Shown: positions 8,789 to 28,974 of the stretch, one piece after another
Layout: each line of letters opens with the position of its first letter
How positions within the stretch are numbered: position 1 is the first letter of the stretch
NCBI GenBank assembly: GCA_027451625.1
Contig: DAIDIY010000011.1
Location: 1 to 59,951, forward strand
From: Candidatus Daviesbacteria bacterium
GTDB taxonomy: Bacteria; Patescibacteriota; Microgenomatia; Daviesbacterales; UBA10151
DNA: 59,951 nucleotides
Direction: 5' to 3'
The notes under the pieces: generated by a model
Databases searched by the model: none
The model's input: the letters and a program-made list of their open reading frames with translations, nothing else
Told to the model about the DNA's origin: nothing
Made by a program: the position numbers and the translations under genes

Positions 8789-9229
8789 ATGATTTATTTA
8801 GGATCGGATCATCGGGGATTTAATTTAAAAAATATTTTAGTTTCTAAGCTTATTGAAGCCGGATTTGAAGTGTCTGATTTAGGAGATAATGAGCTGGATA
8901 AAGATGATGATTATGTAGATTTTGCGGTTAAAGTTGCTGAGGCAGTACAACAGGATAATAAATCCTGGGGAGTTGTTATATGCGGTTCGGGAGTTGGAGT
9001 TGATATGGTAGCGAATCGCTTCAAAGGTATAAGATCGGCTTTAGTTTTTGATGTCCAGCGATCAATACAATCTAGACAACATGAAGATGCAAACGTCTTA
9101 GCACTAGCTGCAGATGTATTAGACGAAACGACTGCATGGGAAATAGTTGAAGCTTTTTTGAAGACTCCATTTTCGAACGAGGAAAGGCATGTTAGAAGGC
9201 TAAATAAAATGGCTTCTTTAGAGAGATGA
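8789..9229 (+). CDS. rpiB: ribose-5-phosphate isomerase B
   Basis: LGSDHRGF, ICGSGVGVDMVANRFKGIR, QHEDANVLAL. The 146-aa size is typical of RpiB/LacAB. Confidence 0.85.
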   Translation: MIYLGSDHRGFNLKNILVSKLIEAGFEVSDLGDNELDKDDDYVDFAVKVAEAVQQDNKSWGVVICGSGVGVDMVANRFKGIRSALVFDVQRSIQSRQHEDANVLALAADVLDETTAWEIVEAFLKTPFSNEERHVRRLNKMASLER

Positions 9230-10504: not shown

Positions 10505-10505
10505 A

Positions 10506-11375
10506 ATGATAGTAAACGATGAAGAGATTTTGAAACTAGAGCTTAAAGCAAATAAGATCCGTCAAGATGTAATTCGGATGTTATCCGAGGCCAAATCTGG
10601 ACATTCGGCAGGTCCATTAGGAATGGCAGACATTATGACTCTCTTGTATTTTTTGGTTCTAAATCACGATCCTAAAAATCCATCTTGGGAAGACCGTGAT
10701 AGGCTTGTATTATCAAACGGTCATATTTGTCCCGTTTTATATGCAGCTTTAGCTAATAGAGGTTATTTCCCGGTCGATGAGTTATTAACTTTACGCAAAC
10801 TTGGTTCGAGGTTGCAAGGTCATCCGCATAGGACTGCTTTACCTGGTTTGGAAACAACTTCAGGTCCATTAGGTTCTGGCTTATCTCAAGCTTGTGGAAT
10901 GGCTAAGGCTGCCTTAATGGATAATGCTTCATGGAGAGTTTATTGTCTGACCTCAGATGGTGAGCATGATGAAGGTAATACTTGGGAAGCAGTGTTATTT
11001 GCATCAAAGTATAAATTACATAATCTAACAGTGATAATGGATCGCAATAATATTCAAATAGATGGTTTTACAGAAGATATAATGCCACTCGGGTCTGTTA
11101 TTGATAAGTATAAATCTTTTGGATGGCACACTTTGGAGGTAGATGGTCATAATTATGAACAATTAATTAATGCTTTTGGTGAAGCAAAAGCAGAATTTGA
11201 GGCACCTACTTTAATAGTAGCTCATACTATTCCTGGAAAAGGTGTGTCGTTTATGGAGAATAAATTTGAGTGGCATGGTAAACCGCCGAATAAAGATGAA
11301 GCAGAACAGGCTTTAAAAGAGCTGGTAGAAATAGAAAAAAAATTAAAATCTAATTCAGAAGTTGTATTTAGTTAA
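10506..11375 (+). CDS. transketolase, N-terminal (thiamine-diphosphate-binding) subunit
   Basis: SGHSAGPLGMADIMTLLYF, RDRLVLSNGH, TSDGEHDEGNTWEA, and NN in DRNNIQIDG. A split tkt gene. Confidence 0.9.
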   Translation: MIVNDEEILKLELKANKIRQDVIRMLSEAKSGHSAGPLGMADIMTLLYFLVLNHDPKNPSWEDRDRLVLSNGHICPVLYAALANRGYFPVDELLTLRKLGSRLQGHPHRTALPGLETTSGPLGSGLSQACGMAKAALMDNASWRVYCLTSDGEHDEGNTWEAVLFASKYKLHNLTVIMDRNNIQIDGFTEDIMPLGSVIDKYKSFGWHTLEVDGHNYEQLINAFGEAKAEFEAPTLIVAHTIPGKGVSFMENKFEWHGKPPNKDEAEQALKELVEIEKKLKSNSEVVFS

Positions 11376-12371
11376 ATGATTAATTCTAATTTATATTTAA
11401 ATCCAAAATTATTTACTGATGATTTGGAACAAGTTCCATCTAGAAATGGATATGGAGAAGGATTAGTTTTGGCAGGGGAGATGTATCCTAACGTAGTAGC
11501 TCTTTGTGCTGACCTTACAGAATCGACAAGAACTGAGGAATTTAAAAAAAGATATCCAGATAGGTTTATCGAAATAGGAGTAGCAGAACAAAATTTAGTT
11601 ACAGTAGCTTCAGGAATGGCAGCAGTAGGTAAAATTCCTTTTACTACCTCTTATGCAACCTTTTCTCCAGGAAGAAACTTGGAGCAAATAAGGACAACTA
11701 TATGTTACAATGACCAGCCTGTTAAGATTATAGGATCACATGCTGGTATTTCAGTTGGCCCGGATGGAGCAACGCATCAAGCGCTGGAAGACATTGCAAT
11801 TATGAGAGCACTTCCAAATATGGTGGTTATTTCGCCTGTTGATTCTCTACAAGCTAAAAAAGCAACCTTGGCAATAGCATCCCTACCGAAACCTTGTTAT
11901 TTGAGACTTTCTAGAGAAAAAGTACCAGTTATTACAACAGAGCAAACTCCGTTTGAGATAGGCAAGGGTCAGATTTTTTGGGAGGGTAAAGATGCTACAA
12001 TTATTTCAACAGGGCAGATGGTTTATAGAGCGCTGGAAGCAGCTAGAGAGTTAGAGAAGAATAATATAAGTGTTCGAGTAATAAACATACACACAATTAA
12101 ACCAATAGATCAGCTTATTATTATAAAGGCTGCTGAGGAAACAGGTGCAATAGTAACTGTTGAGGAACATCAAATAAATGGTGGATTGGGTGGAGCTGTA
12201 GCTGAAGTGGTAGGACAAAATTATCCTGTTCCTCTGAAAATTATTGGCATAAATGACAGATTTGGTGAATCGGGTGAGCCGAATGAACTTCTGGATAAAT
12301 TCGGTTTAAGAGTTGAAGAGATAATAAAAGGCGTAACTTATGTTTTGAGAATGAAAAATCATCCGGACTAA
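11376..12371 (+). CDS. transketolase, C-terminal (pyrimidine-binding) subunit
   Basis: FIEIGVAEQN, GPDGATHQALEDIAIMRALPNM, VTVEEH. Its start abuts the stop of the N-terminal subunit (11375/11376). Confidence 0.9.
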   Translation: MINSNLYLNPKLFTDDLEQVPSRNGYGEGLVLAGEMYPNVVALCADLTESTRTEEFKKRYPDRFIEIGVAEQNLVTVASGMAAVGKIPFTTSYATFSPGRNLEQIRTTICYNDQPVKIIGSHAGISVGPDGATHQALEDIAIMRALPNMVVISPVDSLQAKKATLAIASLPKPCYLRLSREKVPVITTEQTPFEIGKGQIFWEGKDATIISTGQMVYRALEAARELEKNNISVRVINIHTIKPIDQLIIIKAAEETGAIVTVEEHQINGGLGGAVAEVVGQNYPVPLKIIGINDRFGESGEPNELLDKFGLRVEEIIKGVTYVLRMKNHPD

Positions 12372-14599: not shown

Positions 14600-15442
14600 A
14601 TGGTTGATAAAAAATTAGAAATATTTACTAAAAATGAGAAGTTCTTGATGTTAGCTTTAGATCATAGAGAAAGCTTCATGAAATTTTTAAATCCTTCAGA
14701 TCCAAATTCGGTTACCAAAGAATCGGCGATCAGTGCCAAAAGAGAGATAATTGAGTCTTTGCAGGATAGCTTTAGTGGATTATTAGTAGATAAAGAGTAT
14801 GGATTACCGGCTTATCAATTTCATACAAAACCTTATCTTTTACCTATTGAAAAATCTGGTTATACAGAAGATTTAGGTGAACGGATTACAGAGCTGGAGG
14901 TTAGTGCTTCTGATTTGAAAGAATTGGGAGCAGGTGGAGTGAAACTCCTTTTATATTTTAATCCTGATGTTCCCTCGTCATCATCTCAGATAGAGACTGC
15001 AAAAAAAGTTCTAGAAGAATCAAGATTGGTAGGTTTACCTTTATTTTTAGAGATTAGAGTATATCGGGCAGATAGCGGTGATGATCTCAAAGGTCAAGAA
15101 GAAGATTTAGTGCTAAGATCTCTTAAGATGCTTTATGATAATCAAGTTGTTCCCAGTGTTTGGAAATTAGAATTTCCGGGTAGTAAAGAGGGATGTCAGA
15201 AAATTACTGAGTTAGTCGGAGAAACTCCATGGATACTTCTGACTAAAGGGTCAACTTTTGATATTTTTTGTACTGAGCTAAGAGAGGCAACTGAATCAGG
15301 AGCATCAGGATTTTTGGCGGGTAGAGCATTATGGCAAGACCTGTTTTCTACTCATGAAGATAAGAATCAATTCTTAAAACAAACTCTTCCTGAAAGATTC
15401 AACATAATATCGAATATTGCTTTATCGGTCTCTATTAGTTAA
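14600..15442 (+). CDS. class I ketohexose-bisphosphate aldolase, LacD / tagatose-1,6-bisphosphate aldolase family-like
   Basis: FLMLALDHRESF (compare LacD/YihT aLAxDQRgal), GVKLLLYFNPD, FLEIRVY, WKLEFPG, GFLAGRALWQ. Confidence 0.6.
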   Translation: MVDKKLEIFTKNEKFLMLALDHRESFMKFLNPSDPNSVTKESAISAKREIIESLQDSFSGLLVDKEYGLPAYQFHTKPYLLPIEKSGYTEDLGERITELEVSASDLKELGAGGVKLLLYFNPDVPSSSSQIETAKKVLEESRLVGLPLFLEIRVYRADSGDDLKGQEEDLVLRSLKMLYDNQVVPSVWKLEFPGSKEGCQKITELVGETPWILLTKGSTFDIFCTELREATESGASGFLAGRALWQDLFSTHEDKNQFLKQTLPERFNIISNIALSVSIS

Positions 15443-17064
15443 GTTGAGTGTACTAAGTGTTCTAAAGAATAATCCATCTGAGAGTCAGCCTTTTTATGGG
15501 GGTTAAATATATCCTCTGGGTCGAAAATCTTTTTGACCTCTTTAAATAGTTTAAAAATTTTCTCTCCATACATTTGAGAAAGGAAAGGTCCTCTGATTAG
15601 ACCATCATTATGTTCTGCAGTCATTGAACCTTTATACGAAAATACTAGATCATATACTTTGCGAGATAGTTCAGGAATAATCTTTTGATTCCTTGTTTCA
15701 CTCATATTCATCAAAGGAATGATATGGAAATTTCCGTCACCAATATGTCCTGCTATGGTATAAATCATTGGATATCCTTCGAGTAGCTTGTTTAACTTAG
15801 GTAGAAATTCTGGCAGAAATTCAGGTTTAACAATTAAATCATCAATAAACGGTGCAGTCCTTTTTCCATGTATATGCTTCCTTAATAAATTAAAGCTCTC
15901 ACGTCTTATGACCCAATATTTTCTAGATTCTTGTTCAGTCTGGGTAATGCGAGCTTTAAGATGAAATTGAGAGATGCCAGAGAGAGCTTGATGTGCTTTT
16001 TGATCGATCTCTTCTTCACTGTCTCCAGTAAATTCAGCCATTAGAATAAGTTTAGGAAATCCACCAGATATAGTCATTAATATCTCCGGTACAAATTGCC
16101 AAGCCAACGATAGTAGGTTTTTAGGTTTAATAGACTTTACTATTTCAGGAAAATAGCGAATGGCTAGTTTTAGTGTATGATCGTCGTATGATTCAAAACT
16201 CTCAGGCTTAAATTGAAGAACAGTATCTGTAATTTCACCTAAATTTCCCAAATTATTTAAAAATATGACCAGAAGTTTCGAGTGCTTCTTGGGGATTATT
16301 AGTCTGTATTTTATTTTAGTAATTATTCCAAGTGTTCCTTGAGATCCACAAATCAGTTTTGGGAGATTGAAGATTTTACCATCCCAAACATTCCATAAGA
16401 AATATCCTGCTGAGTTTTTGGAGACATCTGGTTTTGCTGCTACAATCTCGTCATAATTTTTAGTAATTAATTCATATAGAGATTTATAAAGTTCACCCTC
16501 AAAATTTTTAAGCTTCATTTTTTCCTCAAGTTGTGTTTTGTTTAATGGTTTAATTTGATATTCATTACCATCCGCTAAAATCATATTAAGCTCTTCTATA
16601 TAGTCTTCTGTCTTTCCATATGTTAATGTTTTTTCACCGCCGGAGTTATTGGCAGCCATTCCTCCGACAGTACATAATTCGCGAGAAGCTGGATAAGATG
16701 GAAGAAGCAGATTGTGTTTTAGAGTTTCTTTCTCAAAATCTCGATAATATACTCCTGGTTCAGTTACAGCAAAGTCGTTTCCGATCTCTAAAATATGATT
16801 GAAATATTTTGTAAACTCTAAAATAATCCCGTCATTAAGCGGTCCTCCCGTCATATCAGTGCCAGCTGAACGGGCTGTGAGAGATATTTTATTCTCAGAA
16901 GCGAACTTAACTAGTTTCTTAACATCTTCAATATTTTTTGGATAAACAACGATTTGAGGTTTAACCTTAAATAGAGAAGCATCTATACTAAAACTATCTA
17001 TAGTGTTTGTATCATCAAAGACTTCTCCATCAATAAGATTTGTAAGCTGCGCTTTAAGATCCAT
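15439..17064 (-). CDS. FAD-linked oxidase (GlcD / D-lactate dehydrogenase family)
   Basis: FAD_binding_4-type N-terminus: VVYPKNIEDVKKLVKFASENKISLTARSAGTDMTGG. C-terminal GHIGDGNFH and SMTAEHNDG. Confidence 0.8.
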   Translation of the reverse strand: MDLKAQLTNLIDGEVFDDTNTIDSFSIDASLFKVKPQIVVYPKNIEDVKKLVKFASENKISLTARSAGTDMTGGPLNDGIILEFTKYFNHILEIGNDFAVTEPGVYYRDFEKETLKHNLLLPSYPASRELCTVGGMAANNSGGEKTLTYGKTEDYIEELNMILADGNEYQIKPLNKTQLEEKMKLKNFEGELYKSLYELITKNYDEIVAAKPDVSKNSAGYFLWNVWDGKIFNLPKLICGSQGTLGIITKIKYRLIIPKKHSKLLVIFLNNLGNLGEITDTVLQFKPESFESYDDHTLKLAIRYFPEIVKSIKPKNLLSLAWQFVPEILMTISGGFPKLILMAEFTGDSEEEIDQKAHQALSGISQFHLKARITQTEQESRKYWVIRRESFNLLRKHIHGKRTAPFIDDLIVKPEFLPEFLPKLNKLLEGYPMIYTIAGHIGDGNFHIIPLMNMSETRNQKIIPELSRKVYDLVFSYKGSMTAEHNDGLIRGPFLSQMYGEKIFKLFKEVKKIFDPEDIFNPHKKADSQMDYSLEHLVHST

Positions 17065-17131: not shown

Positions 17132-17857
17132 TTAATTGTGGATTACTACTTTGGTACCTGGATTTTGGGGAGTAGCTCTGACAACCAATTGGCCCGGCGC
17201 AAGTTTAGGACCTGTCCAATCGTAAAGCCAGGCAGCATCTACAATTGGAGTATTAACACATCCATGACTCATAGGTTCTCCAAAATTATTGTGCCAGTAG
17301 GCTCCATGAATAGCATATCCTTCATAAAAGAACATATTATATGGAACATTAGGTAAATCGTAAAAAGTTCCTAAGCTAGCATCTCCACCAATCATCCTTT
17401 GGCTTCGTGTTTTATACCAAATAGTAAATGTTCCGGTTGGAGTAGGACCCCACCTACCGCTTGAGATTGGGATTTCCATCAATAATTTATTCCCATCCCA
17501 AGCTCTTAATCTTTGTTCTGAAAGAGATACCTCAATCCATTTGCTGGATGAACTAGTATTAGCTTCAGTGCTCGCACCTAAAACATTGTTTTCAAGATCA
17601 CTTTGAAAACTTTGAGCGAGGGATGTTTTTGGATAATCTATGATTTGATCATTAAAAATAGCTTGATTTGCATTTTCATCAAATTGACCAGTAGCTTTTA
17701 AAATATCTGAAACTTGGCAACAGAATTTATTACTCTCTGGGGAGAGATTTAAAGAATAAACAACCCAGCGTTTGAATGGCAGATAAGCAAAAAAAGCAAC
17801 AACAAAAATAGCCATTAAAACAATGGGAGGGAGCAGAAATTTGAGCATTGATTCCAT
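17132..17857 (-). CDS. L,D-transpeptidase (YkuD domain), membrane-anchored
   Basis: Active-site block YAIHGAYWHNNFGEPMSHGCVNTP. N-terminal TM segment LLPPIVLMAIFVVAFFAY. ATG at 17857 preferred. Confidence 0.8.
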   Translation of the reverse strand: MESMLKFLLPPIVLMAIFVVAFFAYLPFKRWVVYSLNLSPESNKFCCQVSDILKATGQFDENANQAIFNDQIIDYPKTSLAQSFQSDLENNVLGASTEANTSSSSKWIEVSLSEQRLRAWDGNKLLMEIPISSGRWGPTPTGTFTIWYKTRSQRMIGGDASLGTFYDLPNVPYNMFFYEGYAIHGAYWHNNFGEPMSHGCVNTPIVDAAWLYDWTGPKLAPGQLVVRATPQNPGTKVVIHN

Positions 17858-17915
17858 TGTTAGATCTTCACCATTTAATGTCAAGTAGGTGGTAAAATAC
17901 AATTTGTTGAAAATA

Positions 17916-19046
17916 ATGTCATTTATCAAAAGAATTAATTTTTCTAAGAGACACTGGTTTCTAAAGTTTCTGTTTGTATTTTTGGTCCTTGGATTTTTAT
18001 GGATCTTTATCGCCTATTTTGTGCCTAAGATATTATCCCCGAAATACGTTGCGAACTCTTTAATTTGGGGAGTTATATATAGAAATGAAGACTGGAGTGG
18101 AGAGGTAAATATAGTTGGAGATGTATGGGCCTTACCTGGAACAGCAGTGAGAATAGAACCAGGAACAAAGATTATCATCAATTCAAGTGGAGATAGATTT
18201 AATCTTAACTGGCTGCCATGGATGTTAAGAAGTGGTATTAATACAGGTCATAATAGTTTTGGAGTAAAAACTGGAGAACCTTTTTGGGATGAACAACAAA
18301 AGATAGATGTTAGACTATCAAAAGTCTTTGCAGTTGGAAGTCGGGACTTACCAATTATTATTGAGTCTGAGACTCTACGACCAGGTAGCCCTTATGATAT
18401 TAATGTGATCTCAATTGATAGTGGAGTATTAAACTTTTTAAAAGCTTCTAACTACCGACGGCTTGAAATAGGAGATCAAGTTAGCATTGAAGGCAGTACT
18501 TTTTCTAATACAGGAGAATGCGCTATTTGTATTGAGTATGGTAGTCCTACAGTTGCAAATAATACTTTCTATAACAGCTTAAGAGAAGCAATTTGGATTT
18601 TTGAGGGAAGTCCGCGGATAACAGATAATTTATTCTCAGAATCTTCCGGATCTGGTGTAGTAGTTAATCCTCATCGTTTTGGAGCTCCAGTCATTTTCCA
18701 TAATGATTTTGAAATGCCCAAAAATATTGCTTTGGAATTTTTAACTGGAGGGGAAGATGCAAGTAGCTTAGTATCTTCTAATATTTTTTCAGGTGGTTCG
18801 ATAATTTCTATTCCCTGCGATACTAAAATTGATTTGACCAAAAATTCAATATTGGGAATAATTCAGTTTAATCATTTTGGTTGTATAGGACATTTAACCT
18901 TTGGTCCAAATTGGTGGGGAACAACTAATAGAAGATCAATTATAAATGAAAAAATTACGAATAGAGGAAAATACTTCAATATAGAGATTCCCTCTATTCT
19001 GGTTGCTCCATCAAAGAGAGTAGGGAGAAGATTAAATCAGAATTAG
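17916..19046 (+). CDS. hypothetical membrane-anchored protein with parallel beta-helix-like repeats
   Basis: TM segment FLKFLFVFLVLGFLWIFIAYF. Repeating ~22-aa units of the type I.GS.FSN....AI.I..GSP.V.NN.F (NosD/PbH1-like). ATG at 17916 preferred. Confidence 0.45.
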   Translation: MSFIKRINFSKRHWFLKFLFVFLVLGFLWIFIAYFVPKILSPKYVANSLIWGVIYRNEDWSGEVNIVGDVWALPGTAVRIEPGTKIIINSSGDRFNLNWLPWMLRSGINTGHNSFGVKTGEPFWDEQQKIDVRLSKVFAVGSRDLPIIIESETLRPGSPYDINVISIDSGVLNFLKASNYRRLEIGDQVSIEGSTFSNTGECAICIEYGSPTVANNTFYNSLREAIWIFEGSPRITDNLFSESSGSGVVVNPHRFGAPVIFHNDFEMPKNIALEFLTGGEDASSLVSSNIFSGGSIISIPCDTKIDLTKNSILGIIQFNHFGCIGHLTFGPNWWGTTNRRSIINEKITNRGKYFNIEIPSILVAPSKRVGRRLNQN

Positions 19047-19211: not shown

Positions 19212-19886
19212 TTATTTTGTAGGAAAGTAACAAATTGTAAATCCATCAAAACTAGGAATATATTCTTTTTCTCGATTAGTTCTTGTAAAAGTTGATACTT
19301 TCTTCCCAAAAGCAAGTGGATATTCCACATGAGGGGTAAATATGTAACTTCCTATCTTTGATGACTCCTGAGAAGGCAGGCGTTGTAAACCGTAGAAACC
19401 AAGTCTTCTGCTAAGTTCTGTTATTATGTCAGTTGTAGGAATTCCTCTTACTTCCCGAGAAATATTATCAAATTTAATAATTCTTACAGCTTGATGGCGA
19501 CCAATCATCTCAGAGATAGGTCTGCAATATCCCAGGTATTCTTCATAAGTTTTTCCTGTGCTAATAGTTTCTCCTAGTATTTTTCCAGTGGGGCTATCTT
19601 TCGAGAACAGATAAGTTAAAGTACCGCGATTTGGAGTTGGATCTAGTCCATAAAAACTAACGACTTTAGGAATCATTGCATGAAGTCTTTGAGCAATAAG
19701 TTTAGAATACCCACGCAGCTGTTCTTCCTCGAATGAATAAAAATTATCGGAATACATTCCTGATCTTCTCCTCAGCCATCTTACAAAATTACAATAATTC
19801 TTTTCTTGTGGGTTTAGAATCTCTCTTTCAATAGCCATAGACCGCATTATACTGTAAATGTAAGAAAATGAAGATTTGATTGACAA
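19212..19886 (-). CDS. hypothetical protein
   Basis: 224-aa ORF with no motif I can assign. Start uncertain (TTG at 19886; ATGs at 19847 and 19838). Confidence 0.45.
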   Translation of the reverse strand: MSIKSSFSYIYSIMRSMAIEREILNPQEKNYCNFVRWLRRRSGMYSDNFYSFEEEQLRGYSKLIAQRLHAMIPKVVSFYGLDPTPNRGTLTYLFSKDSPTGKILGETISTGKTYEEYLGYCRPISEMIGRHQAVRIIKFDNISREVRGIPTTDIITELSRRLGFYGLQRLPSQESSKIGSYIFTPHVEYPLAFGKKVSTFTRTNREKEYIPSFDGFTICYFPTK

Positions 19887-19915: not shown

Positions 19916-20194
19916 ATGGAGTTATCTGCGTCTGATATTCCGGTTAATTCAAAAACATCTTTTGCAAATCGTCCTCAATGGCAAAGGCTGTTATTTGTTG
20001 CGGCTGCACTAGGGGGAGTAATTATTTTAGTTATGCTTTTTGCAAATCTAAGAAAGGTAAAAACATCATCTGAGAGTTCTACCATAGTTTATGGTAAGCC
20101 TGTTGGTGCTCTGCCTGTATTTCGATTGGTGACAGGAGTACCTCCACAACCACATGTGCCAGATTACTTAAAGCCGCAAATACCCAAACACTAA
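19916..20194 (+). CDS. hypothetical single-pass membrane protein
   Basis: 92 aa. TM segment LLFVAAALGGVIILVMLFA and a Pro-rich tail. Confidence 0.4.
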   Translation: MELSASDIPVNSKTSFANRPQWQRLLFVAAALGGVIILVMLFANLRKVKTSSESSTIVYGKPVGALPVFRLVTGVPPQPHVPDYLKPQIPKH

Positions 20195-21765
20195 TCTAGA
20201 AGTTTGCTTTTAATTAATTTTCTAACTGATAACCAGTATCCTTCTATTAAATCTTTTGAAGTAGGATTAGCCCCAAATGGAATCTCAAATGCAGGAGCGC
20301 GTGTAACCCCATAAAATCCATTCTTAATCTCGCTTTGGATTATGGAATTTTTATTCGCATCGACCCATTCAACACCTCCATCTCCTGATTGAGAATCGAC
20401 GATATAGATAGCTTTATTAAATCTAGGAAATTTTTTGTTCACTAAAAGTGAGGTTAAGATTTTAGGATTCAAAAGGGATTTTAAATTATTAGTAATGGTT
20501 TTTTGAATATCAAAATCAGTATTTAGCTCCCCTGCTGTATTTTCATTTGTTATAAAGTTTATTAAATTCACTCCGAAATTATTAATAGGATTTAGAATTT
20601 CTAATGAAAATAGTTTTGTTTTTATTACATTAAGCAACGCTTCAAATACTATTTTTTTCCGTACATTTCTCTCTGTTGTCCGGTCATAATCTTTTGGCAA
20701 TGCTTTCATAAACTCCATTAATCTAAATCCATTAAGAGTTTGTCTCCCTTTTGAAAATTTTTCTCCTAAATATTTTTTATTTTTGTAATAAAATGGCTGA
20801 GTCTCTAGATTGAACGGAATATCAACTTCTAATCCATGAAGCAGGTGGTCATCCATATCAGCTAGAATTTGATCGTTCATCGTAATCTGGAAATCTACGG
20901 AAAATCCGGTGGCATCCTCAATGGTTTGTCGCATAAGATCAAATCCGCCTATCCAATATGCCTGATCTATCTTAGAAGGTCCTGCTTTTTTGCCATATTT
21001 CTTTTCTTGGAATCTTTCAATTTCTACTGCTTCGATATCGTGAGTGAGAGACACCATATCTATGGTATTTTGATCTAAATCGATTGAAATTATAGTTGGT
21101 GAACCAATTCTCGCTTGATTATTAGATTCAAAAGTATCTCCATAACCAAAAAGCAAAAAGTTTACTCTACTTCTATTAAGATCAGCATCGACCCGATGAT
21201 TAAACTCTGGATCTGTTTGTTGTCTTTCCGATCGCCTTTTTTGGGCTTCGATGATAAAAGGTTTTAATAGTTCAAGGTAAAGATTATTAGATCTCTCTTT
21301 TGTCGCTTCTGGACTTGGAGTCAGGGTTTTTATAATCGGTGCTGAATCAACCTCGGGAGTGGTCTGAGCCGGTACTATGGTAGTAGGACTAATAGTAGGA
21401 GATGGATTAGGCTCATTTGGTTTGGGAGTAGAACTTTTTGAAATAGTATTATTTTTTTCTGCCAAAGTCTTTTCATTGGTATTAGAAAGAGATGTTGATG
21501 ACAAGGCTCTCTTGTTATGCAAAAGATATAATGAGGTCCCAATCCCAACTCCAAATAAGGCTAAGGCAGTTCGACGAGAAACAGCTGGTTGTTTAACTCT
21601 CTGATTGTTATTTGAAGGTAGGGTATGAATCGCTTTTTTTAAAGCTTTAGCTGCTGTTGCTAAAGCCTCTCTTTCAGGGTCTTCTCTGATTTCTCGTAAA
21701 ACACCTGTATAATCATTTAATTCTTCTCTCACGGATCCTACCTCCTTTATCCAACCACTCAGCAA
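20191..21765 (-). CDS. single-pass membrane protein with a divergent LytR-CpsA-Psr (LCP)-like ectodomain
   Basis: Cytoplasmic tail, TM segment ALALFGVGIGTSLYLL, and a Ser/Thr/Pro linker. Then VNFLLFGYGDTFE, GSPTIISIDLDQNTIDMVSLTHD, KIDQAYWIGGFDL and FSVDFQITMNDQILADMDD, which follow the LCP template. The start region overlaps the preceding gene; GTG near 21735 is possible. Confidence 0.45.
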   Translation of the reverse strand: MLSGWIKEVGSVREELNDYTGVLREIREDPEREALATAAKALKKAIHTLPSNNNQRVKQPAVSRRTALALFGVGIGTSLYLLHNKRALSSTSLSNTNEKTLAEKNNTISKSSTPKPNEPNPSPTISPTTIVPAQTTPEVDSAPIIKTLTPSPEATKERSNNLYLELLKPFIIEAQKRRSERQQTDPEFNHRVDADLNRSRVNFLLFGYGDTFESNNQARIGSPTIISIDLDQNTIDMVSLTHDIEAVEIERFQEKKYGKKAGPSKIDQAYWIGGFDLMRQTIEDATGFSVDFQITMNDQILADMDDHLLHGLEVDIPFNLETQPFYYKNKKYLGEKFSKGRQTLNGFRLMEFMKALPKDYDRTTERNVRKKIVFEALLNVIKTKLFSLEILNPINNFGVNLINFITNENTAGELNTDFDIQKTITNNLKSLLNPKILTSLLVNKKFPRFNKAIYIVDSQSGDGGVEWVDANKNSIIQSEIKNGFYGVTRAPAFEIPFGANPTSKDLIEGYWLSVRKLIKSKLLD

Positions 21766-23935
21766 AAAGATCTCTTAATTGCTGTTCTGTTTTACCTTCC
21801 AGGTTTTTAATTTGATCTGTTTTATAAAGATGAAGTAGGAACTCTTTTGCTTGGACTGCATTTACTGGATTTATATTGTTTCCTAAGATATTAATGATAA
21901 AGTCCAAAACTTCCAAGTTGTCTTTTTCCCGGTTAATATATTCACTTATAAATTTAGGCGGAATTGTAGGATCTCCTGGCTCTTTTGGTAGGAATTGATT
22001 ATTGGCAAATTTATAATCTGCTAAATCTGCAATCTCTGAAAAAACTTCTTTTAAATTATTACCTATTTTAGTGCCTTTATCATCTAAATCTTTGGTTGCT
22101 GAAAGATATGGACCAAGAGTGGGAAGTAATTCATTCCATATAATTTGTATGTCTTGAGGAGTTGGAGAAGAAGGATAATAAGATAATAAGAAGAGAACTT
22201 GATTTAATAAGTCATCACCCGAATCATTAAAGAGTTTTGCCATTGATTCAGTATCTTTTAATTCATCCCGTAACTTTGGATCAGGTACTGCTATATCAAA
22301 AAGTAAACTCGTGACCAATTCTGTATTATATTCATTTATCAGTGCAGGATTTTCCAGCATATCCTTTACAGCTCTAATCCCTGGATAATATTTTTCTGGA
22401 AGAATAGATATCTTTTCAGCTAACTTTTTGTATATATTGTTAAATATATTTGGTTGTTCAGGATTTATATCTTGCGCTTTGATTATATCAAGAAAACCAT
22501 GACGGAAAGTATCATAGTTTTGATCCCATATTTCGTTAGGTGCTGTGATATCAGAAGTCATCTTAGAAATTGATTGATCTGGATTTCTGCTTATAGTTGG
22601 AAGAATGTCATTTATATGAGTAATATCCCTTAAGCTAGTTAATAGAGAATATAAGTTAGTGCTTTGAGGATTATCAGTATTATCTTCTTCTTGGGGTGGA
22701 GTATATTTAATCTCTAAAGTTGGTAATTGAGAAGTCAAAGAACCAGAAGGAATCTGCAGAGTTTGTTCTATCCATTCGATCTCATGTTGATAAACTGATA
22801 TATACTGCTTGGGGTGCTCTCGCACCCACTGCTGACGCTGTTCTAAAGAAAAGTTTTTTTGTAGTTTTACCCAATGATTATATGTACTTCTTTGAATTTG
22901 GGGGCTATCTCCCTCAGTTGCGAATTTGTCTATATAAACAAACGGATTATTTAGAAACATATTTTCGATCTGTTCCTCATTAAGAGTTAAACGTCCTTTT
23001 GATATAAAATGTTTAAGCTCAGATGGAATGTTCTTAGGATATAGGTAAAGATCTGGGTGCTTTGCAAAATAATCTTCTACTTCAAAAGGTTTATCCCTAT
23101 ACAAATCAGCAAGTTTTGTCTCAGCTTTAATTATAAGCATGTTAGGGATAGGAGAATCGGTTAAATCTTTGATACCATCTAGTTCTAGTCGTAAGATATT
23201 AAAGGGATTGGCATTTAGGAAACGTGCGACTTCCTTTAAAGGTATCTCTCTTTTAGCTGCTAAAATTTGATCTTTATTATTTATGTTAGAAGGAAGAAGC
23301 AATGGATCAATTTGAAGAAGTTCAAAAGGACTGAGATTAACCTCTATTTTTTGACTCTCTCTAGCCTCTGCACTGATATACCCTCCCATTTTAGCATTAT
23401 CATCTGCTCGAACGTCATGAGGATCTATATTGTCACGTATATAATCTCTCCTTTTAGGAGAACTACTATTTTCTGAAACAAGTTGAGAAAAAGATTCAAT
23501 GGTTATGTCTTGAGGATGTGTAGGAAGGGGATGTCCGCTCCTATCTAAGTCGGTAATTATTTTATTTATATAATCATTTAGTCTGGGGTCAGAATCATAT
23601 CCTAGCCATCTTAATGTTTGAATAGACTTTATTATTCCTTCAGTTTTTCCTTTCATATATGTCATTCCTAATCGCTCGACAGCTGCTGGGAAAAGTTTTT
23701 TCCTATAAGAATTTCCTATCGCAGTGGTCAAAGGATAGAGTTTTGTTATTATGGTTTTAATATTTGGATTGTTTGGGTCTAATATAGAAAGACACTCAAA
23801 ATCATCAATTAATACTTGAGGATCGAAGTATCTTCCTTTACTATAATTATCTGCAATCTGGGAGAGGAGCTCTTTTGGAGTTTTAGGAAGTATAAATGAT
23901 TGATCTGTCCGTACTTCAGATTCATTATTATTCAT
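21713..23935 (-). CDS. hypothetical 740-aa soluble protein (orphan)
   Basis: Long uninterrupted ORF with no TM or signal peptide and no recognisable catalytic motif. Its stop overlaps the start region of the LCP-like gene. Confidence 0.6.
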   Translation of the reverse strand: MNNNESEVRTDQSFILPKTPKELLSQIADNYSKGRYFDPQVLIDDFECLSILDPNNPNIKTIITKLYPLTTAIGNSYRKKLFPAAVERLGMTYMKGKTEGIIKSIQTLRWLGYDSDPRLNDYINKIITDLDRSGHPLPTHPQDITIESFSQLVSENSSSPKRRDYIRDNIDPHDVRADDNAKMGGYISAEARESQKIEVNLSPFELLQIDPLLLPSNINNKDQILAAKREIPLKEVARFLNANPFNILRLELDGIKDLTDSPIPNMLIIKAETKLADLYRDKPFEVEDYFAKHPDLYLYPKNIPSELKHFISKGRLTLNEEQIENMFLNNPFVYIDKFATEGDSPQIQRSTYNHWVKLQKNFSLEQRQQWVREHPKQYISVYQHEIEWIEQTLQIPSGSLTSQLPTLEIKYTPPQEEDNTDNPQSTNLYSLLTSLRDITHINDILPTISRNPDQSISKMTSDITAPNEIWDQNYDTFRHGFLDIIKAQDINPEQPNIFNNIYKKLAEKISILPEKYYPGIRAVKDMLENPALINEYNTELVTSLLFDIAVPDPKLRDELKDTESMAKLFNDSGDDLLNQVLFLLSYYPSSPTPQDIQIIWNELLPTLGPYLSATKDLDDKGTKIGNNLKEVFSEIADLADYKFANNQFLPKEPGDPTIPPKFISEYINREKDNLEVLDFIINILGNNINPVNAVQAKEFLLHLYKTDQIKNLEGKTEQQLRDLFAEWLDKGGRIRERRIK

Positions 23936-24032
23936 GGTTATTCTAAGGATATATTGGAATCAAAAAAAACGGAATATGCTTCTACTATTGACTGAGTAAG
24001 TTAAAGGTGTTTATATGGTTATATAAATATTT

Positions 24033-26033
24033 ATGGCTGAAGAAGGCTCTGAAATTCTTGTTGATAAAAGAATAGCTGAAGGATTACTTGCTGTAGCCGA
24101 TGAGAGTACTCCTTCTATATCTAATACTACCACTAGTAATGAAACATCTCTTAATACTCCAAGAAAGCCTAGATTTATACCGCGTTTAAGGCAAGGCTTT
24201 AGAAATTTATTACATCGTCCTAGTTCTGACGGAGATAATAGTCTATCTGGAGCAGCCGTATCTTCAGAGACTGCAGAGAAGGAACCGTTATTTGGGAGTA
24301 ATCTTTATAAAGATGCTGAGGGTGGAATAGGTTCTGTGCCTAAAGTAGAGCCACCTCCTCAATCAACGCCTACTTTGAACTCTGAGCCTCTTCCTACTAC
24401 AGCCTCTGGACTTTCGGAGAGTGTCATGCAGCAAGCAAATATTAAAGCTCGACAGGAGGGAAAACCTCTGCCTTATCCTGAAGCTCAAGGTGTCAAGTTG
24501 CCCTATGCTTTGGAGGGGAAATTACTTGACCTTAAAGGTGAGCGAGATGTTCTAATACAAAAACTATCAGATTTGATGATTTCGGATGCGGAGCGTGCTG
24601 AATTTGAAGCGCAGATAGCAACTTTAGATGGACAAATAAATCAATTTATGTTTCCTACCCCTGAAGAGAGAAAGCAACAAGTAGAGGAGACTAAAAAAGA
24701 ATTAACTGATATTCGGGCCGCAAATGAAGATCTTGAACCAAGTTATAAAGAAGATTTAAATAACCAAATCGATTCTTTTATTTCAGAACTCGATAATTAT
24801 ATAAAAGATATTCCCGAAGCTGCGGATGCTGAACGATCCATTTTAAGAAGAGTCTTAGATTATAAGTTGCCTTTGGTGGGAGCTACCGTGAAAGATTATC
24901 TAATTTATACTGCAGTAGGTTCATCAACAGGATTAGTCGCCAGAACAGCCGTCTTGAATGGAATGAGGATATTCTTAAGTGTTGGCGCAACTCCGGTTGC
25001 TACAACTCTTGCTGGAGCTGCTGCAGGTGGAGCTTCAGGCTTTGCAAGAGAATATATAAAACTTGTTAGAGATGAAAAAAGGCAGGAAAAAATCTCAGAG
25101 TTAAGAGAGAAATATAATGATCGAAATACACTTAAAAGAGAACTTTTAGTTAGATTAAAGTCTGGTGATTTGCAAAGGTTAGGCAAAGCTAGCCTTCGCG
25201 GAGCAATCGTGGGTGCTATGTCAGGGTTTGTTGCATTTGAAGTAGCCAGCTGGGCTAAAGATCATATTGACCTGAACTCATTTATTGAAGGTATTAAACA
25301 TCATCTGCCTGGAGGCGGAACTGATCGTGGATCAACTCTTAGTGTTAAGCCCGAACCTACCCCAACGCCGTGGCATTCTCCGTCTCCTCATGAAACGCCG
25401 ATAAACAGTTCTGCCGGAGTCCATAGCACTTCTACTCCTATTGCTACTGAAACACCGACACCTACTCCAACTCATCCTTTACCTAATTCTTCACCTTTGG
25501 AATTATCATCTACACCCACTGTTCATTCAACTCCTGCTGTTAATCTTCCCCCTGGCCATTCTGGAACAAATATTGACTTAGGAAATCATGGAGCTTCGGG
25601 TACAGGACCTGGAAGCACTGGACTAGAGCCAAAGCCAGGTAGCAATCTTTCTGTTGGATCTTCACATGGATCAACTCTAGGAGTCTCAGCGGATAAGGCA
25701 AATGGTTCTTTTGGTACTCACAGTGCACCAGTAGGTGAAACTGCCTTTCATATTCCTGATGGAGTGATACCTAAAGATGGAATTGTCCACCTCTCTGAAG
25801 GGTCAAATCCTTGGAATATGGCTTCTAAAATTGGCGAACATGCATTAGGTAGGCCTTTGACACCTGAAGAGACGCTTGAATTGACTAAAGAAATAGCTAG
25901 GCAGTCTAAAGTTGCTGTTCCGGGATGGGGGATCGGTGGGCCTGGATTTACCGATGAACATTCACTTGGAACTGGATATAAACTTGTTTTTAATGATAAA
26001 GTAGTTTCTTTATTACAAAGTTTTAAAAAATAG
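24033..26033 (+). CDS. hypothetical 666-aa modular membrane protein
   Basis: Disordered N-terminus, then a coiled-coil segment (residues ~170-290). Gly/Ala-rich hydrophobic helices follow (LIYTAVGSSTGLVARTAVL, SVGATPVATTLAGAAAGGASGF, GAIVGAMSGFVAFEVASWA). Then a ~150-aa Pro/Thr/Ser/Gly linker and a ~110-aa C-terminal globular domain. Confidence 0.6.
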   Translation: MAEEGSEILVDKRIAEGLLAVADESTPSISNTTTSNETSLNTPRKPRFIPRLRQGFRNLLHRPSSDGDNSLSGAAVSSETAEKEPLFGSNLYKDAEGGIGSVPKVEPPPQSTPTLNSEPLPTTASGLSESVMQQANIKARQEGKPLPYPEAQGVKLPYALEGKLLDLKGERDVLIQKLSDLMISDAERAEFEAQIATLDGQINQFMFPTPEERKQQVEETKKELTDIRAANEDLEPSYKEDLNNQIDSFISELDNYIKDIPEAADAERSILRRVLDYKLPLVGATVKDYLIYTAVGSSTGLVARTAVLNGMRIFLSVGATPVATTLAGAAAGGASGFAREYIKLVRDEKRQEKISELREKYNDRNTLKRELLVRLKSGDLQRLGKASLRGAIVGAMSGFVAFEVASWAKDHIDLNSFIEGIKHHLPGGGTDRGSTLSVKPEPTPTPWHSPSPHETPINSSAGVHSTSTPIATETPTPTPTHPLPNSSPLELSSTPTVHSTPAVNLPPGHSGTNIDLGNHGASGTGPGSTGLEPKPGSNLSVGSSHGSTLGVSADKANGSFGTHSAPVGETAFHIPDGVIPKDGIVHLSEGSNPWNMASKIGEHALGRPLTPEETLELTKEIARQSKVAVPGWGIGGPGFTDEHSLGTGYKLVFNDKVVSLLQSFKK

Positions 26034-26046
26034 TTTAGACTAAGTT

Positions 26047-26403
26047 ATGAATCTGCAAATAGATGATATTTTAAACAAATTAGTTGATGAATGCCTGAGT
26101 GCACCTGCTTTTGCTACACTAGATGCTCAACAAAAAGAAGTGCAAAAACAGAAGATACTGAACCATTTTTATACAAGGATTCTTTTTATTACTATTGATA
26201 ACCTGACAGATGAACAGTATGGACAGATACAAGATCTAAAACCAGAAGATCCTCAATTTGAACAGAAGATAGAATCTTTTACTCAAGAGATGCCTCAGCT
26301 TTTAGATTTATTCGATCAGACATTAAAAAAAGATGCCGACTATATTAAAAATACAGGTCAACTTCCTTCCTTGGAAGAAGATCAATCCCAAAACCCTCTC
26401 TGA
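26047..26403 (+). CDS. hypothetical small acidic helical protein
   Basis: 118 aa, 13-nt gap after the 666-aa gene. It resembles small helical CPR-restricted families (DUF5663-like), from recollection only. Confidence 0.45.
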   Translation: MNLQIDDILNKLVDECLSAPAFATLDAQQKEVQKQKILNHFYTRILFITIDNLTDEQYGQIQDLKPEDPQFEQKIESFTQEMPQLLDLFDQTLKKDADYIKNTGQLPSLEEDQSQNPL

Positions 26404-26419
26404 TGTAAAATGCAGTTCT

Positions 26420-26944
26420 ATGAAAAGACAAGTAATACTAGTATCGCTTTTTGCTTTGTTTGTCTTACCGGCGCCTGTTCAAGCCAGAACAACACCTAAC
26501 GATATATATCAACAAAGGCAAGAAGAGTTTCGAAATGATTTAGCTAAAATACAAAATCCAACTAAGAAAGATTTAGTGATTAAAGCAAATAGTGAGCTTT
26601 ATGATATTAATCAACAGATATGTGATCGCTTCGAGATTGATATATATAAAATGGCAGCTGTTTTGGATGAAGAGAAAAAGCGTCAAGGTGTAACGCATAC
26701 AATAGTTGCTTATGGCCAAGGAAATACTCCGCTTGATCAGGCAGCTTATTATTTAAACTATGCCGAAGAGGCACTTGCTTATCAGCGCATTCAAGATTAT
26801 ACCCCTAATCTGTCAAATGGAGATGTTTCTGAATCTGTAGTTAAGAGTAAAGATTTGCTGGAAAATAATTTAGAAGTTTTACAGGAAAAAATACTAACTG
26901 CTAAAGCGGAGATTAATAAGGCATTAGATTACTATGAAAAATAA
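26420..26944 (+). CDS. hypothetical secreted helical protein
   Basis: The ATG at 26420 gives a signal peptide, MKRQVILVSLFALFVLPAPVQA. The longer track start (26333) overlaps the previous gene. Confidence 0.5.
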   Translation: MKRQVILVSLFALFVLPAPVQARTTPNDIYQQRQEEFRNDLAKIQNPTKKDLVIKANSELYDINQQICDRFEIDIYKMAAVLDEEKKRQGVTHTIVAYGQGNTPLDQAAYYLNYAEEALAYQRIQDYTPNLSNGDVSESVVKSKDLLENNLEVLQEKILTAKAEINKALDYYEK

Positions 26945-27212
26945 AAAATTTCTGTTTGTTATTTTATTTCTCACTGTCATAGGATTTATTCTATACTTGC
27001 TACCGAAACATCTACAGGCTTCAAATCTTACTGTGAGCTCTTTATCTACTCCAAAATTTACTCCTACTTCTTCTCCTAGTCCTACAATGGGTATTCCTAA
27101 ATTCAATTTTAATAAATCAACTAATTTAAAAGAAGAGCTTCAGACAGTAGATCCTAAGATAGATACTAATGATTTTTCTCCGTTGCAGCAGATTATATCT
27201 TCACTGAAATAA
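26934..27212 (+). CDS. hypothetical small single-pass membrane protein
   Basis: 92 aa. TM segment FLFVILFLTVIGFILYLL and a Ser/Thr/Pro stretch. 11-nt overlap with the upstream gene. Confidence 0.4.
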   Translation: MKNKKFLFVILFLTVIGFILYLLPKHLQASNLTVSSLSTPKFTPTSSPSPTMGIPKFNFNKSTNLKEELQTVDPKIDTNDFSPLQQIISSLK

Positions 27213-27358: not shown

Positions 27359-27610
27359 TCATCTTTTAATCACAGCTCCTTGAATGTAAAGTAGGAGTAA
27401 AGATCCAGCCATTGCCACCAAAAATGAAGATAGATTAAATCCTGTAATACTAACATTAAGTATTAGACTACCTAAAAATCCTCCTAACAAAGATCCCGCT
27501 ATTCCAACTAGGATTGATCCCCATATACCATCTCGTGATGCTCCTGGATCAAGTATATAAGTAAATATCCCTATCAAACTCCCGAATACCAACCAGGCTA
27601 ATACATTCAT
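27359..27610 (-). CDS. GlsB/YeaQ/YmgE family (transglycosylase-associated) stress membrane protein
   Basis: 83 aa. LAWLVFGSLIGIFTYIL...GIWGSILVGIAGSLLGGFLGSL is the typical Gly-zipper pattern. Confidence 0.75.
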   Translation of the reverse strand: MNVLAWLVFGSLIGIFTYILDPGASRDGIWGSILVGIAGSLLGGFLGSLILNVSITGFNLSSFLVAMAGSLLLLYIQGAVIKR

Positions 27611-27672: not shown

Positions 27673-28236
27673 CTAGCTCTTACCAGTAATTATAACTATA
27701 TTAAATGGAGTAAGCTTAGATTCTGAAACTAAGGAAACTTTAGTGAATTCTTTTTGTAAAAGATCAACTAAAGGTTTTAAATCAGTAGAATTCAGATTGG
27801 ATGAGTAGTTTACTATTGTATGAGGCTGATTTTGAGAGTCGGCATTTCCAATCTGGATGTCTTTAAAGTTTAAATCACTAATTAATGTTTTTACTTTACC
27901 TGCCTGTCCGGAGATTCCGCTACCATTTAAAACCTGTACAGAAATCTGATCAAGATTAATTTGATCAACAGTAGGAGTGGGAGGGGTAATTCTAGAATTA
28001 ACAAGTGTTGGCTTTATATTAACATTCTGAGCTTCTAGGTTTAAAACCGGAGATTTTAAAGTAGGGAAAAGAGCTATATAGCCAAAAGCTATGCATATTG
28101 TGCTTACTAAAAATAATATAATGACTGCAAATAAAAGTGACGAGTGCTCTTTGTCAAAAAATAATACCTTCAGAGGATGAGAAGGCCTAAACGGGGATTC
28201 AGAAAAAATAACTCCTCTTTTACTCTTTTCTTCCAT
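27673..28236 (-). CDS. LytR_C (LytR cell-envelope-related C-terminal) domain protein, membrane-anchored
   Basis: TM segment LLFAVIILFLVSTICIAFGYIALF. ISVQVLNGSGISGQAGKVKTLISDLNF..IQIGNAD is the LytR_C signature. Confidence 0.65.
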   Translation of the reverse strand: MEEKSKRGVIFSESPFRPSHPLKVLFFDKEHSSLLFAVIILFLVSTICIAFGYIALFPTLKSPVLNLEAQNVNIKPTLVNSRITPPTPTVDQINLDQISVQVLNGSGISGQAGKVKTLISDLNFKDIQIGNADSQNQPHTIVNYSSNLNSTDLKPLVDLLQKEFTKVSLVSESKLTPFNIVIITGKS

Positions 28237-28530: not shown

Positions 28531-28974
28531 TTAACGGTGAGGAGTAAATTTTTTAACTAGCTTAGCAGTGTATATAATTTCTCTTACTTCTCCATCATCG
28601 CCTTCGATTTCATTTACTCCTGATAATCGTTGATATTCTTTTAGATAATCAGACAAAGCCTCTTGCATCTGTTTAAGTTCACCTCTTGAGTTTGCGACTT
28701 TTTGAGCCAGATCCGCTGCTTGTGGCTGTTTTAAGATTTGAGATTTAGTCATTGATTTTAGCTTACTCGCTTCTTTGGCTTTCTTGTCATGCTCTTTATA
28801 GGTAGAGTCGTTGTTGAGAATATCGTCTATAATTCCTTGCTGTTTTTGAATCTCTTCTTCTAATTGACTAATGCCTGAAATGTGACTTTTTATCATTTGC
28901 TCTAAATTAATAAGAACTAAACCCTGATTATTTTCGTCTTGAGAAGTGGACTGATCTGGTTGCATATCTATCAA
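28531..28974 (-). CDS. hypothetical coiled-coil protein downstream of ruvB
   Basis: 147 aa with heptad-rich Gln/Glu/Lys sequence and a short C-terminal beta-like segment, EVREIIYTAKLV. Same strand as ruvCAB, 68 nt after ruvB. Confidence 0.45.
   Translation of the reverse strand: MIDMQPDQSTSQDENNQGLVLINLEQMIKSHISGISQLEEEIQKQQGIIDDILNNDSTYKEHDKKAKEASKLKSMTKSQILKQPQAADLAQKVANSRGELKQMQEALSDYLKEYQRLSGVNEIEGDDGEVREIIYTAKLVKKFTPHR

Follow-up and report, generated by a model that had tools for sequence, protein, structure and literature searches.

A possible lineage-restricted cell-envelope module around an LCP-family protein in a Microgenomates (Patescibacteria) bacterium

Do six tightly packed genes, five of them without a match to any profiled family, encode parts of one cell-envelope system, or are they neighbors by chance? 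The question is raised by a divergent locus (20191-27212) in a 59,951-nt stretch of DNA, here called the window, from contig DAIDIY010000011.1 of a “Candidatus Daviesbacteria” bacterium. We tentatively read this locus as a lineage-restricted, LCP-centered cell-envelope module of a Microgenomates (Patescibacteria) bacterium. Its recurrent core, as judged by sequence comparison, is an undescribed association of the LCP protein with the families of a 666-amino-acid (aa) membrane protein and a 118-aa acidic protein; three further proteins, of 740, 174, and 92 aa, are attached to the module by operon structure only. The locus comprises the following features, given with the evidence behind each.

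20191-21732, minus strand: LCP-family protein, 513 aa (PF03816 and TagV matches; Shine-Dalgarno sequence before a GTG start)
21713-23935, minus strand: acidic, predicted all-helical soluble protein, 740 aa (open reading frame, ORF; hydropathy; AlphaFold2, AF2)
23936-24032, no strand: divergent intergenic region, 97 bp (sequence; alignment with the related locus L001)
24033-26033, plus strand: membrane protein, 666 aa (ORF; homologs; hydropathy; AF2 model of its tip)
26047-26403, plus strand: acidic helical cytoplasmic protein, 118 aa (ORF; homologs L091_107 and a partial one on L001)
26420-26944, plus strand: secreted protein, 174 aa, signal peptide MKRQVILVSLFALFVLPAPVQA followed by RT (ORF; hydropathy; codon frame)
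26934-27212, plus strand: bitopic protein, 92 aa (ORF; hydropathy; codon frame)

The case for a core was made by two other loci. In three of three loci the 666-family gene was strictly adjacent to a downstream 118-family gene, with gaps of 13 (window), 15 (L001), and 2 nt (L091), and in both loci where an LCP operon is visible (window and L091) the pair lay opposite that operon. The short contig L001 (VFSW01101169.1, 3.2 kb) preserved the divergent order 740 <-> 666 -> 118 of the window, in the form of the N-terminal 250 residues of a 740 homolog (46% identity), a 666 homolog, and 26 N-terminal residues of a 118 homolog (58%). L091, an independent 11-kb contig of 43% GC that was found by tracing LCP homologs with long cytoplasmic N-termini, encoded on one strand a 559-aa orphan, an 814-aa member of the 666 family, a 107-aa member of the 118 family, and a helix-turn-helix protein, in that order; on the opposite strand, an 802-aa canonical LCP was followed by a 527-aa LCP of the window's subfamily, 41.6% identical to the window LCP. 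The first-pass annotation, which had proposed a single surface module on the letters of the window alone, had made its case hang on synteny beyond this genome; L001 keeps 740 <-> 666 -> 118, and L091 keeps 666 -> 118 opposite its LCP operon.

An alternative is that a housekeeping LCP gene happens to sit beside a hypervariable patch of fast-evolving, lineage-specific genes with unrelated functions, their packing being that of a compact genome. Patches of such hypothetical genes are typical of Patescibacteria genomes, and the window holds further orphans at 215-1024, 2743-3519, 5967-6563, 28531-28974, 51125-52771, and 56594-59866. Neighborhoods of the LCP subfamily are otherwise unconserved, relatives share only ruvCAB around ruvB, and the 740-, 174-, and 92-aa proteins do not recur beyond one close relative. 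Coincidence nevertheless seems to us somewhat unlikely, given that two genomes with LCPs of only 42% identity both carry the 666/118 pair beside an LCP operon (the pair being adjacent in every locus), that intergenic blocks are conserved although the flanking proteins are only ~46% identical, and that all products are either envelope-targeted or partnered with envelope-targeted proteins. If the association were coincidental, the locus would be just another patch of orphans in the genome of a candidate phylum.

Several results weigh against a single module. L091 encodes no counterpart of the 740-aa protein, and neither the 174-aa nor the 92-aa protein has a relative in any locus compared; these last two are counted as members by position alone. 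The partners are absent from five Patescibacteria-like loci of the LCP subfamily (L083, L084, L085, L092/L093, and L094) and from three Chloroflexi-like ones (L088-L090). The RuvB encoded adjacent to the locus is 77% identical to that of “Ca. Daviesbacteria,” 72% and 70% to those of Gottesmanbacteria, and 71% to that of Woesebacteria; these closest matches place the window in Microgenomates (Patescibacteria), in line with the Patescibacteria origin assumed in the first-pass annotation. The ruvB neighborhoods of relatives (80 genomes, Daviesbacteria and Gottesmanbacteria included) keep only ruvCAB and no gene of the cluster. With two or three instances known, the statistics of synteny are thin. 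No gene for glycopolymer synthesis or export, glycosyltransferases and flippases included, occurs in the 60-kb window. On the same side stand the active-site substitutions of the LCP protein and three likenesses that fall short of significance (those of the 740-aa protein to an LCP N-domain, of the 118-aa protein to DUF5663, and of the 666-aa tip to LysM), each described below with its protein. The single module first proposed thus survives in part, since the LCP, 666, and 118 proteins recur and the 740-, 174-, and 92-aa proteins do not follow them; the accompanying suggestion of host contact or glycopolymer display found no support in a window lacking glycosyltransferase and flippase genes.

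The six ORFs are real genes with host-like codon usage: when 21 Pfam-supported genes of the window served to train a codon-usage model, the annotated frame ranked first in six of six (0.16-0.27 nats per codon), like that of neighboring known genes. The ORFs, their coordinates and strands, and the 97-bp divergent region were all present as first drawn, and the operon-like coupling likewise held, with tight spacing or overlap at every junction. On the plus strand, 13 nt separate the 666- and 118-aa genes, 16 nt separate the 118- and 174-aa genes, and the 174- and 92-aa genes overlap by 11 nt; a promoter/terminator scan found no terminator-like site between genes within either unit. On the minus strand, the overlap of the LCP gene with the stop codon of the 740-aa gene is confirmed, at 20 nt rather than 53. 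The LCP start is most likely GTG 21732 (513 aa) instead of the TTG at 21765 chosen earlier (524 aa), because the GTG follows an AAGGAGG Shine-Dalgarno sequence at a distance of 7 nt and the public gene call for this protein (P0004) is also 513 aa long. An overlap of this size is most likely a classic arrangement for translational coupling. That the 740-aa and LCP genes are one frameshifted gene was ruled out by the strong Shine-Dalgarno sequence at the GTG and by the independent 513-aa database call.

Between the two units, two blocks of the 97-bp region are kept in its 89-bp counterpart on L001, namely, TAAGGATATA (23944-23953) and TATTGAC (23986-23992), the latter resembling a -35 element. 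A consensus promoter scan gave no site in 23936-24032, and the promoter/terminator scan showed no enrichment over shuffled sequences; a promoter function for this region is inferred.

Five consecutive genes without a profile match make the locus an orphan island in a window where most other ORFs have strong Pfam matches. Apart from coiled-coil noise, searches with the five non-LCP proteins returned nothing from Pfam, NCBIfam, PHROGs, PADLOC, or PDB sequences, and a motif scan found no Walker A, HExxH, CxxC, LPXTG, or lipobox motif in the cluster proteins. The original statement that no motif could be assigned outside the LCP domain agrees with these scans, and profile and fold checks for unrelated known families (Pfam, NCBIfam, PDB, and Foldseek on the 666-aa tip) made no confident assignment. 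Orphan status was in part an artifact of sensitivity for the 666- and 118-aa proteins, for which the word-indexed search had missed the 814-aa protein of L091 (L091_814); it stood for the 740-aa protein, which matched only itself.

An orphan-rich patch in which GC content reaches 0.41 (24-26 kb) against ~0.33 elsewhere, and whose proteins give weak coiled-coil matches to PADLOC and PHROG entries, could be taken for a mobile, viral, or defense island inserted beside the LCP gene. This explanation is effectively refuted. GC content rises at 24-26 kb because the 666-aa gene is rich in Ala, Gly, Pro, and Thr codons, and the matches in the coiled-coil region are weak (best PADLOC E=5e-4, 17 bits; PHROG E>=0.02). 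Codon usage is host-like, no flanking or tandem repeats were found around the cluster, no integrase or tRNA junction borders it, and IMG/VR holds no relatives of its proteins. Elsewhere in the window, a pentose-phosphate block at 8789-12371 (plus strand) encodes RpiB, ribulose-phosphate 3-epimerase, and a transketolase in two genes, one N- and one C-terminal; such ordinary housekeeping genes fit a chromosomal setting rather than a mobile one.

The identification of the 513-aa protein as LCP-like is upheld, and its family membership is firm by profile and by fold. It matched PF03816 with 53.7 bits (cut-off 24.6) over residues 225-382 and profile positions 7-149 of 150, and the structures of Bacillus subtilis TagV (PDB 3nxh/6uf3) and YvhJ at E=1e-7; the NCBIfam model of the LCP domain gave 47.4 bits, under its cut-off of 62.3. 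Its layout comprises a 53-aa cytoplasmic tail, a Tat-like SRRTAL motif with a transmembrane (TM) anchor, a Ser/Thr/Pro-rich linker, the LCP domain, and a C-terminal extension. Only one hydrophobic segment was found (residues 66-82 of the 524-aa reading; Kyte-Doolittle hydropathy 1.73), followed by the Ser/Thr/Pro linker, and hydropathy predicts an N-terminal anchor with the catalytic domain outside the membrane.

At least 80 homologs of the window LCP, at 32-46% identity, align as a distinct LCP subfamily drawn from Patescibacteria, Chloroflexi, and others. The alignments typically cover ~70% of the query (52-89%), corresponding to the LCP ectodomain together with a C-terminal extension of ~140 aa, and a near-invariant signature runs through them: GYGxTxEPP...IGS; SLTHDIRAPEIE; KIDQAYxxGGF; E(R/H)NxRK; and, in the C-terminal extension, GDGGVxW...YW..VR. 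Conserved Arg and Asp residues of LCPs are important for pyrophosphate binding and catalysis, and residues that bind pyrophosphate-Mg2+ include R118 and R219 of TagT and R99, D123, R218, and D224 of Staphylococcus aureus LcpA (PMC7831098). In the alignment with TagV, RSD is replaced by RIG and PRD by THD (the Asp kept, the Arg lost), the RxR region is not alignable, and the distal RNxR is retained; the canonical arginines of RSD and PRD are replaced throughout the aligned subfamily (at least 80 members), where IGS and THD stand instead. The window copy departs further, reading THDIEAVE against a subfamily THDIRAPE, with Glu and Val where Arg (93%) and Pro (97%) are conserved. Transferase activity is not assured because of the PRD-to-THD and RSD-to-RIG changes plus the Arg and Pro losses of the window copy.

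Tat-type motifs lie at or before the anchor in many subfamily members (TRRQFLRG in P0007, MDRRDFIK in P0047, also RRGFL; clear in P0068 and P0063). The SRRTAL of the window protein, which precedes its TM segment 52 residues from the N-terminus, is less clear than the motifs of its relatives, and no Tat genes were among the window ORFs scanned. By these motifs the subfamily may be a functionally distinct, Tat-dependent clade. The window LCP is an ordinary member of this widespread subfamily, most of whose other loci compared here lack the partners, and the role of special centerpiece given to it in the first-pass annotation could not be upheld. It is a new member of a known family and of a poorly described subfamily, whereas the 666 and 118 families are undescribed; a literature search found nothing on LCP proteins in Patescibacteria.

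Other genes adjoin subfamily LCPs elsewhere. A second canonical LCP with extra fused domains shares the operon of the subfamily LCP in L091 (5321-7729, plus strand) and L092 (3788-6058, plus strand), the extra part being a C-terminal region in the former and Amidase_3 in the latter; the window shows no such second LCP. In two independent contigs, L092 (6055-7326, minus strand) and L094 (269-1513, plus strand), homologous proteins of ~415-420 aa that are unrelated to the window cluster adjoin the subfamily LCP. They carry the motif YVRD(A/S)F(Y/F)AL(I/V)GL(E/D)D, have a glycoside-hydrolase-like look with no Pfam match on record, and may be another recurrent LCP neighbor.

The 666-aa protein has one close homolog, P0003 on L001 (47% identity), and a more distant one in L091_814, to which it aligned over the C-terminal domain (42% over 71 aa, E=4e-11) and the membrane region (25% over 230 aa, E=2e-8). 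DNA-pattern scans with the alignment of this family found nothing in GTDB genomes, and in JGI metagenomes they returned only the contig of the known homolog. The three-sequence alignment (666, P0003, and L091_814) revealed an N-terminus that is variable and disordered; the invariant motif ARQEGKPLPYPxAQGVKLP; a coiled coil; two Gly/Ala-rich TM helices 4-6 residues apart, forming a hairpin; a Lys/Arg-rich helix; a third TM helix; a Pro/Thr stalk of ~140 residues; and a conserved terminal domain of ~100 residues. Hydropathy accordingly shows three moderately hydrophobic, Gly/Ala-rich segments (~279-305, 313-336, and 388-408) in place of the one first assigned; the topologies given for the LCP, 740-, 174-, and 92-aa proteins agreed with hydropathy as they stood, and so did the plan of cytoplasmic tail, TM segment, Ser/Thr/Pro linker, and ectodomain said to be shared within the cluster. 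The N-terminal 280 residues of the 666-aa protein and its Lys/Arg-rich loop (337-385) would be cytoplasmic, and the stalk and tip outside, because of the positive-inside rule and the lack of a signal peptide.

Pro/Thr-rich linkers are long in the 666-aa protein and present in the LCP itself and the 92-aa protein, and they raise the possibility that the LCP puts a lipid-linked glycan not on peptidoglycan but on the co-encoded Ser/Thr/Pro-rich 666-aa stalk and the 92-aa protein. There is a precedent in Actinomyces oris, whose LcpA glycosylates the surface protein GspA (PMC7831098), and divergent active-site motifs could suit an altered acceptor. Such protein glycosylation is nonetheless quite improbable here: no sortase or LPXTG motif and no nearby glycan synthesis genes were found, and Pro/Thr linkers are common, non-specific spacers that also occur in many Chloroflexi-type members of the subfamily.

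An AF2 model of the tip (residues 560-666) had a beta-alpha-alpha-beta-alpha order (E25-28, H34-46, H52-65, E90-93, and H96-105) at a predicted local distance difference test score (pLDDT) of 60.6. A Foldseek search of the PDB with it gave nothing below E=1; a fold search of BFVD placed LysM-named entries at ranks 1, 3, 7, 18, and 33, with non-significant values (E=1.4-8.5, TM-score ~0.35). Residues 540-666 matched no Pfam family at E<=10, LysM (PF01476) included, a profile search of the tip against the PDB gave no LysM match, and PDB sequence searches with the 666-aa protein were also empty. LysM-like wall binding by the modeled tip is a lead and not a result. A long extracellular Pro/Thr stalk with a conserved tip, in a lineage of Patescibacteria, might instead belong to an episymbiont's host-contact or adhesion module whose tip binds the host cell surface. 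We regard this as highly doubtful: profile scans showed no adhesin-like repeat, pilus, secretion-system, or toxin domain, the tip is a small domain that resembles only the wall-binding LysM, and weakly so, and it is a wall-modifying enzyme, not secretion machinery, with which the protein is associated.

A protein of similar architecture lies directly downstream of an LCP homolog (P0005) in L084 (1926-3110, plus strand; >395 aa, partial). From a charged N-terminus it runs through a Gly-rich TM hairpin and a charged helix to another TM segment and a Pro/Ser-rich linker; homology to the 666 family was not detectable (hhalign P=0.005 over 10 columns). This protein (L084_395), together with L085_503, L085_2023, L088_717, L092_755, L093_416, and L091_559, was rejected as a relative of the 666-, 740-, or 118-aa proteins after negative BLAST and hhalign comparisons.

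The 118-aa protein is acidic (22 Asp+Glu versus 10 Lys+Arg) and matched L091_107 at 29% over 100 aa (E=2e-17) and the partial protein of L001 at 58% over 26 aa. It may be distantly DUF5663-like. A DUF5663 (PF18908) member of the same length, L085_118, which passes the Pfam profile with 26.3 bits against a cut-off of 23.7, heads an operon divergent from a large orphan followed by an LCP in L085; hhalign of this protein with the 118 family gave a probability of 34% (P=4e-4), below significance, and the PF18908 profile matched neither the window protein at E<=10 nor L091_107 at E<=1. No paper mentioning DUF5663 was found in the literature.

For the 740-aa protein, neither a word-indexed search (5.8 billion proteins) nor an exhaustive phmmer search (1.84 billion representatives) returned anything but the protein itself; its sole relative, 46% identical over 250 aa, is a truncated ORF of 263 aa on L001. 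The 740-aa protein has no hydrophobic or TM segment (hydropathy maximum 0.86), and a single-sequence AF2 model was helical and, at a pLDDT of 36.8, unusable. Sequence and profile searches of the PDB gave no match, no internal repeats were found in it or in the 666-aa protein, and no catalytic motifs were seen. A looser pattern that speaks for the module is also shared: in L085 (2023 aa), L092 (>755 aa), and L093 (416 aa), as in the window, the gene directly upstream of the LCP gene encodes a large soluble orphan, although these three are not homologous to the 740-aa protein.

Residues 90-130 of the 740-aa protein (...IQTLRWLGYDSDPRLNDYINKI...) weakly resemble the cytoplasmic N-domain of the LCPs P0019, P0013, L091_802, and P0024 (...IELFAALGYSDSEPVTKVI...). 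Against the Patescibacteria-type LCP N-domain, hhalign gave a probability of 32% (P=5e-4), which is below significance and optimistic, because the aligned regions were chosen after the resemblance had been noticed. If the likeness is true, the 740-aa protein would provide in trans what other loci encode as a fused part of the LCP. A more elaborate version of the module can be built on it: a Patescibacteria-specific trans-envelope LCP complex of a Tat-anchored divergent LCP, a three-pass coiled-coil stalk protein with a new wall-binding tip, a DUF5663-like adaptor, and a detachable cytoplasmic module, the 740-aa gene having arisen by gene fission. We consider this version unlikely. Were it true, the N-terminal region of the 740-aa protein would be the LCP cytoplasmic N-domain, split off by gene fission and supplied in trans, and cytoplasmic cues would be coupled to wall-polymer attachment or stalk-protein glycosylation in ultra-small bacteria.

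Of the two last products of the plus unit, the 174-aa protein begins with a signal-like hydrophobic segment ending in VQA before RT, and the 92-aa protein has a strong N-terminal TM segment, a short Ser/Thr/Pro linker, and a tail of ~40 aa.

The lineage-restricted, LCP-centered module that we favor could work as follows. The LCP would transfer, or at least hydrolyze, a polyprenyl-pyrophosphate-linked glycopolymer at the wall of a single-membrane organism; Patescibacteria are inferred to have a single membrane and murein, possibly with rhamnose wall polysaccharides (PMC11809585), and an LCP function is plausible for that reason. The 666-family protein would be a trans-membrane scaffold or wall tether, whose tip, with the LysM-like beta-alpha-alpha-beta topology of its model, may bind peptidoglycan or glycan. 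Its coiled coil, the 118-aa protein, and the helical 740-aa protein would organize or regulate the LCP via its cytoplasmic tail, and the secreted 174-aa and bitopic 92-aa proteins might be lineage-specific accessory envelope proteins co-transcribed with the plus unit.

Envelope proteins are frequent among the neighbors of the locus, which favors the module. Upstream, a YkuD L,D-transpeptidase with an N-terminal TM segment (17132-17929, minus strand) and a membrane-anchored right-handed beta-helix protein (PF13229; 17889-19046, plus strand) overlap by ~40 nt at their starts, and the envelope-gene neighborhood therefore reaches upstream of the cluster. Near the LCP 3' end lie a 224-aa ORF at 19212-19886 (minus strand), without a profile match and with a weak coding score of 0.10, and a 92-aa TM protein at 19916-20194 (plus strand), also without a profile match, whose gene runs toward the LCP gene and shares 4 nt with it. 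Just past the plus unit and convergent with it stands a small membrane protein of the Transgly_assoc/GlsB type (27359-27610, minus strand), and, 460 bp beyond the plus unit and likewise in a convergent transcription unit, a feature that serves only as context and lies outside the cluster:

27673-28236, minus strand: stand-alone bitopic LytR_C protein, 187 aa (PF13399, 36.3 bits versus a cut-off of 22.2; TM segment)

Farther away, ARAGORN called a 95-nt tRNA-Ala(GGC) at 15777-15871 (plus strand) inside the ORF of an FAD-linked oxidase (15439-17064, minus strand); the call has no Rfam support and is probably a false positive. Two large proteins, at 51125-52771 (plus strand, 548 aa) and 56594-59866 (minus strand, 1090 aa), had no Pfam match at E<=0.001 and are candidate lineage-specific proteins.

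In Gram-positive bacteria, LCP enzymes carry out the final ligation of wall glycopolymers; they are drug targets and are normally described as stand-alone proteins. Patescibacteria form a very large uncultured group, and almost nothing is known of their envelope biology. A recurrent association of an LCP subfamily with dedicated membrane and cytoplasmic partners would point to regulated or scaffolded attachment of wall polymers in these bacteria, and the comparisons made here define the objects for its study: an LCP subfamily of at least 80 members, a membrane family (666, P0003, and L091_814) with a predicted extracellular tip, and a family of small acidic partners.

Set beside known systems, the window LCP resembles TagT/U/V of B. 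subtilis, LcpA-C of S. aureus, and Cps2A of Streptococcus pneumoniae in its PF03816 match, N-terminal anchor, and predicted extracytoplasmic domain, and it keeps from canonical LCPs the KI(D/N)xAYxxGG block, the Asp of PRD, and the distal RNxR(K/Q). It differs from them in the signature of its subfamily, the ~140-aa C-terminal extension, the replaced arginines, and the frequent Tat-like anchors, and its gene, unlike those of canonical LCP systems, has no wall-polymer biosynthesis genes nearby. In Actinobacteria, LytR_C is normally fused to LCP enzymes (LcpA of Corynebacterium glutamicum and mycobacterial Lcp1). The domain is functionally important in C. glutamicum LcpA (PMC7831098), whereas in the window it forms a separate 187-aa protein in a convergent unit ~6 kb from the LCP gene. 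Like the LcpA-GspA pair of A. oris, the window LCP is encoded near surface proteins with Ser/Thr/Pro-rich regions; unlike GspA, these partners carry no sortase signal and are unrelated in sequence. The C-terminal domain of the 666-aa protein differs from LysM, which it is not demonstrated to be, in a loop of ~25 residues between helix 2 and strand 2, and shares with stalked LysM proteins a predicted beta-alpha-alpha-beta(-alpha) order after an extracellular Pro/Thr linker. The 118-aa protein, finally, is like the DUF5663 protein L085_118 in both its size and its position class beside an LCP operon.

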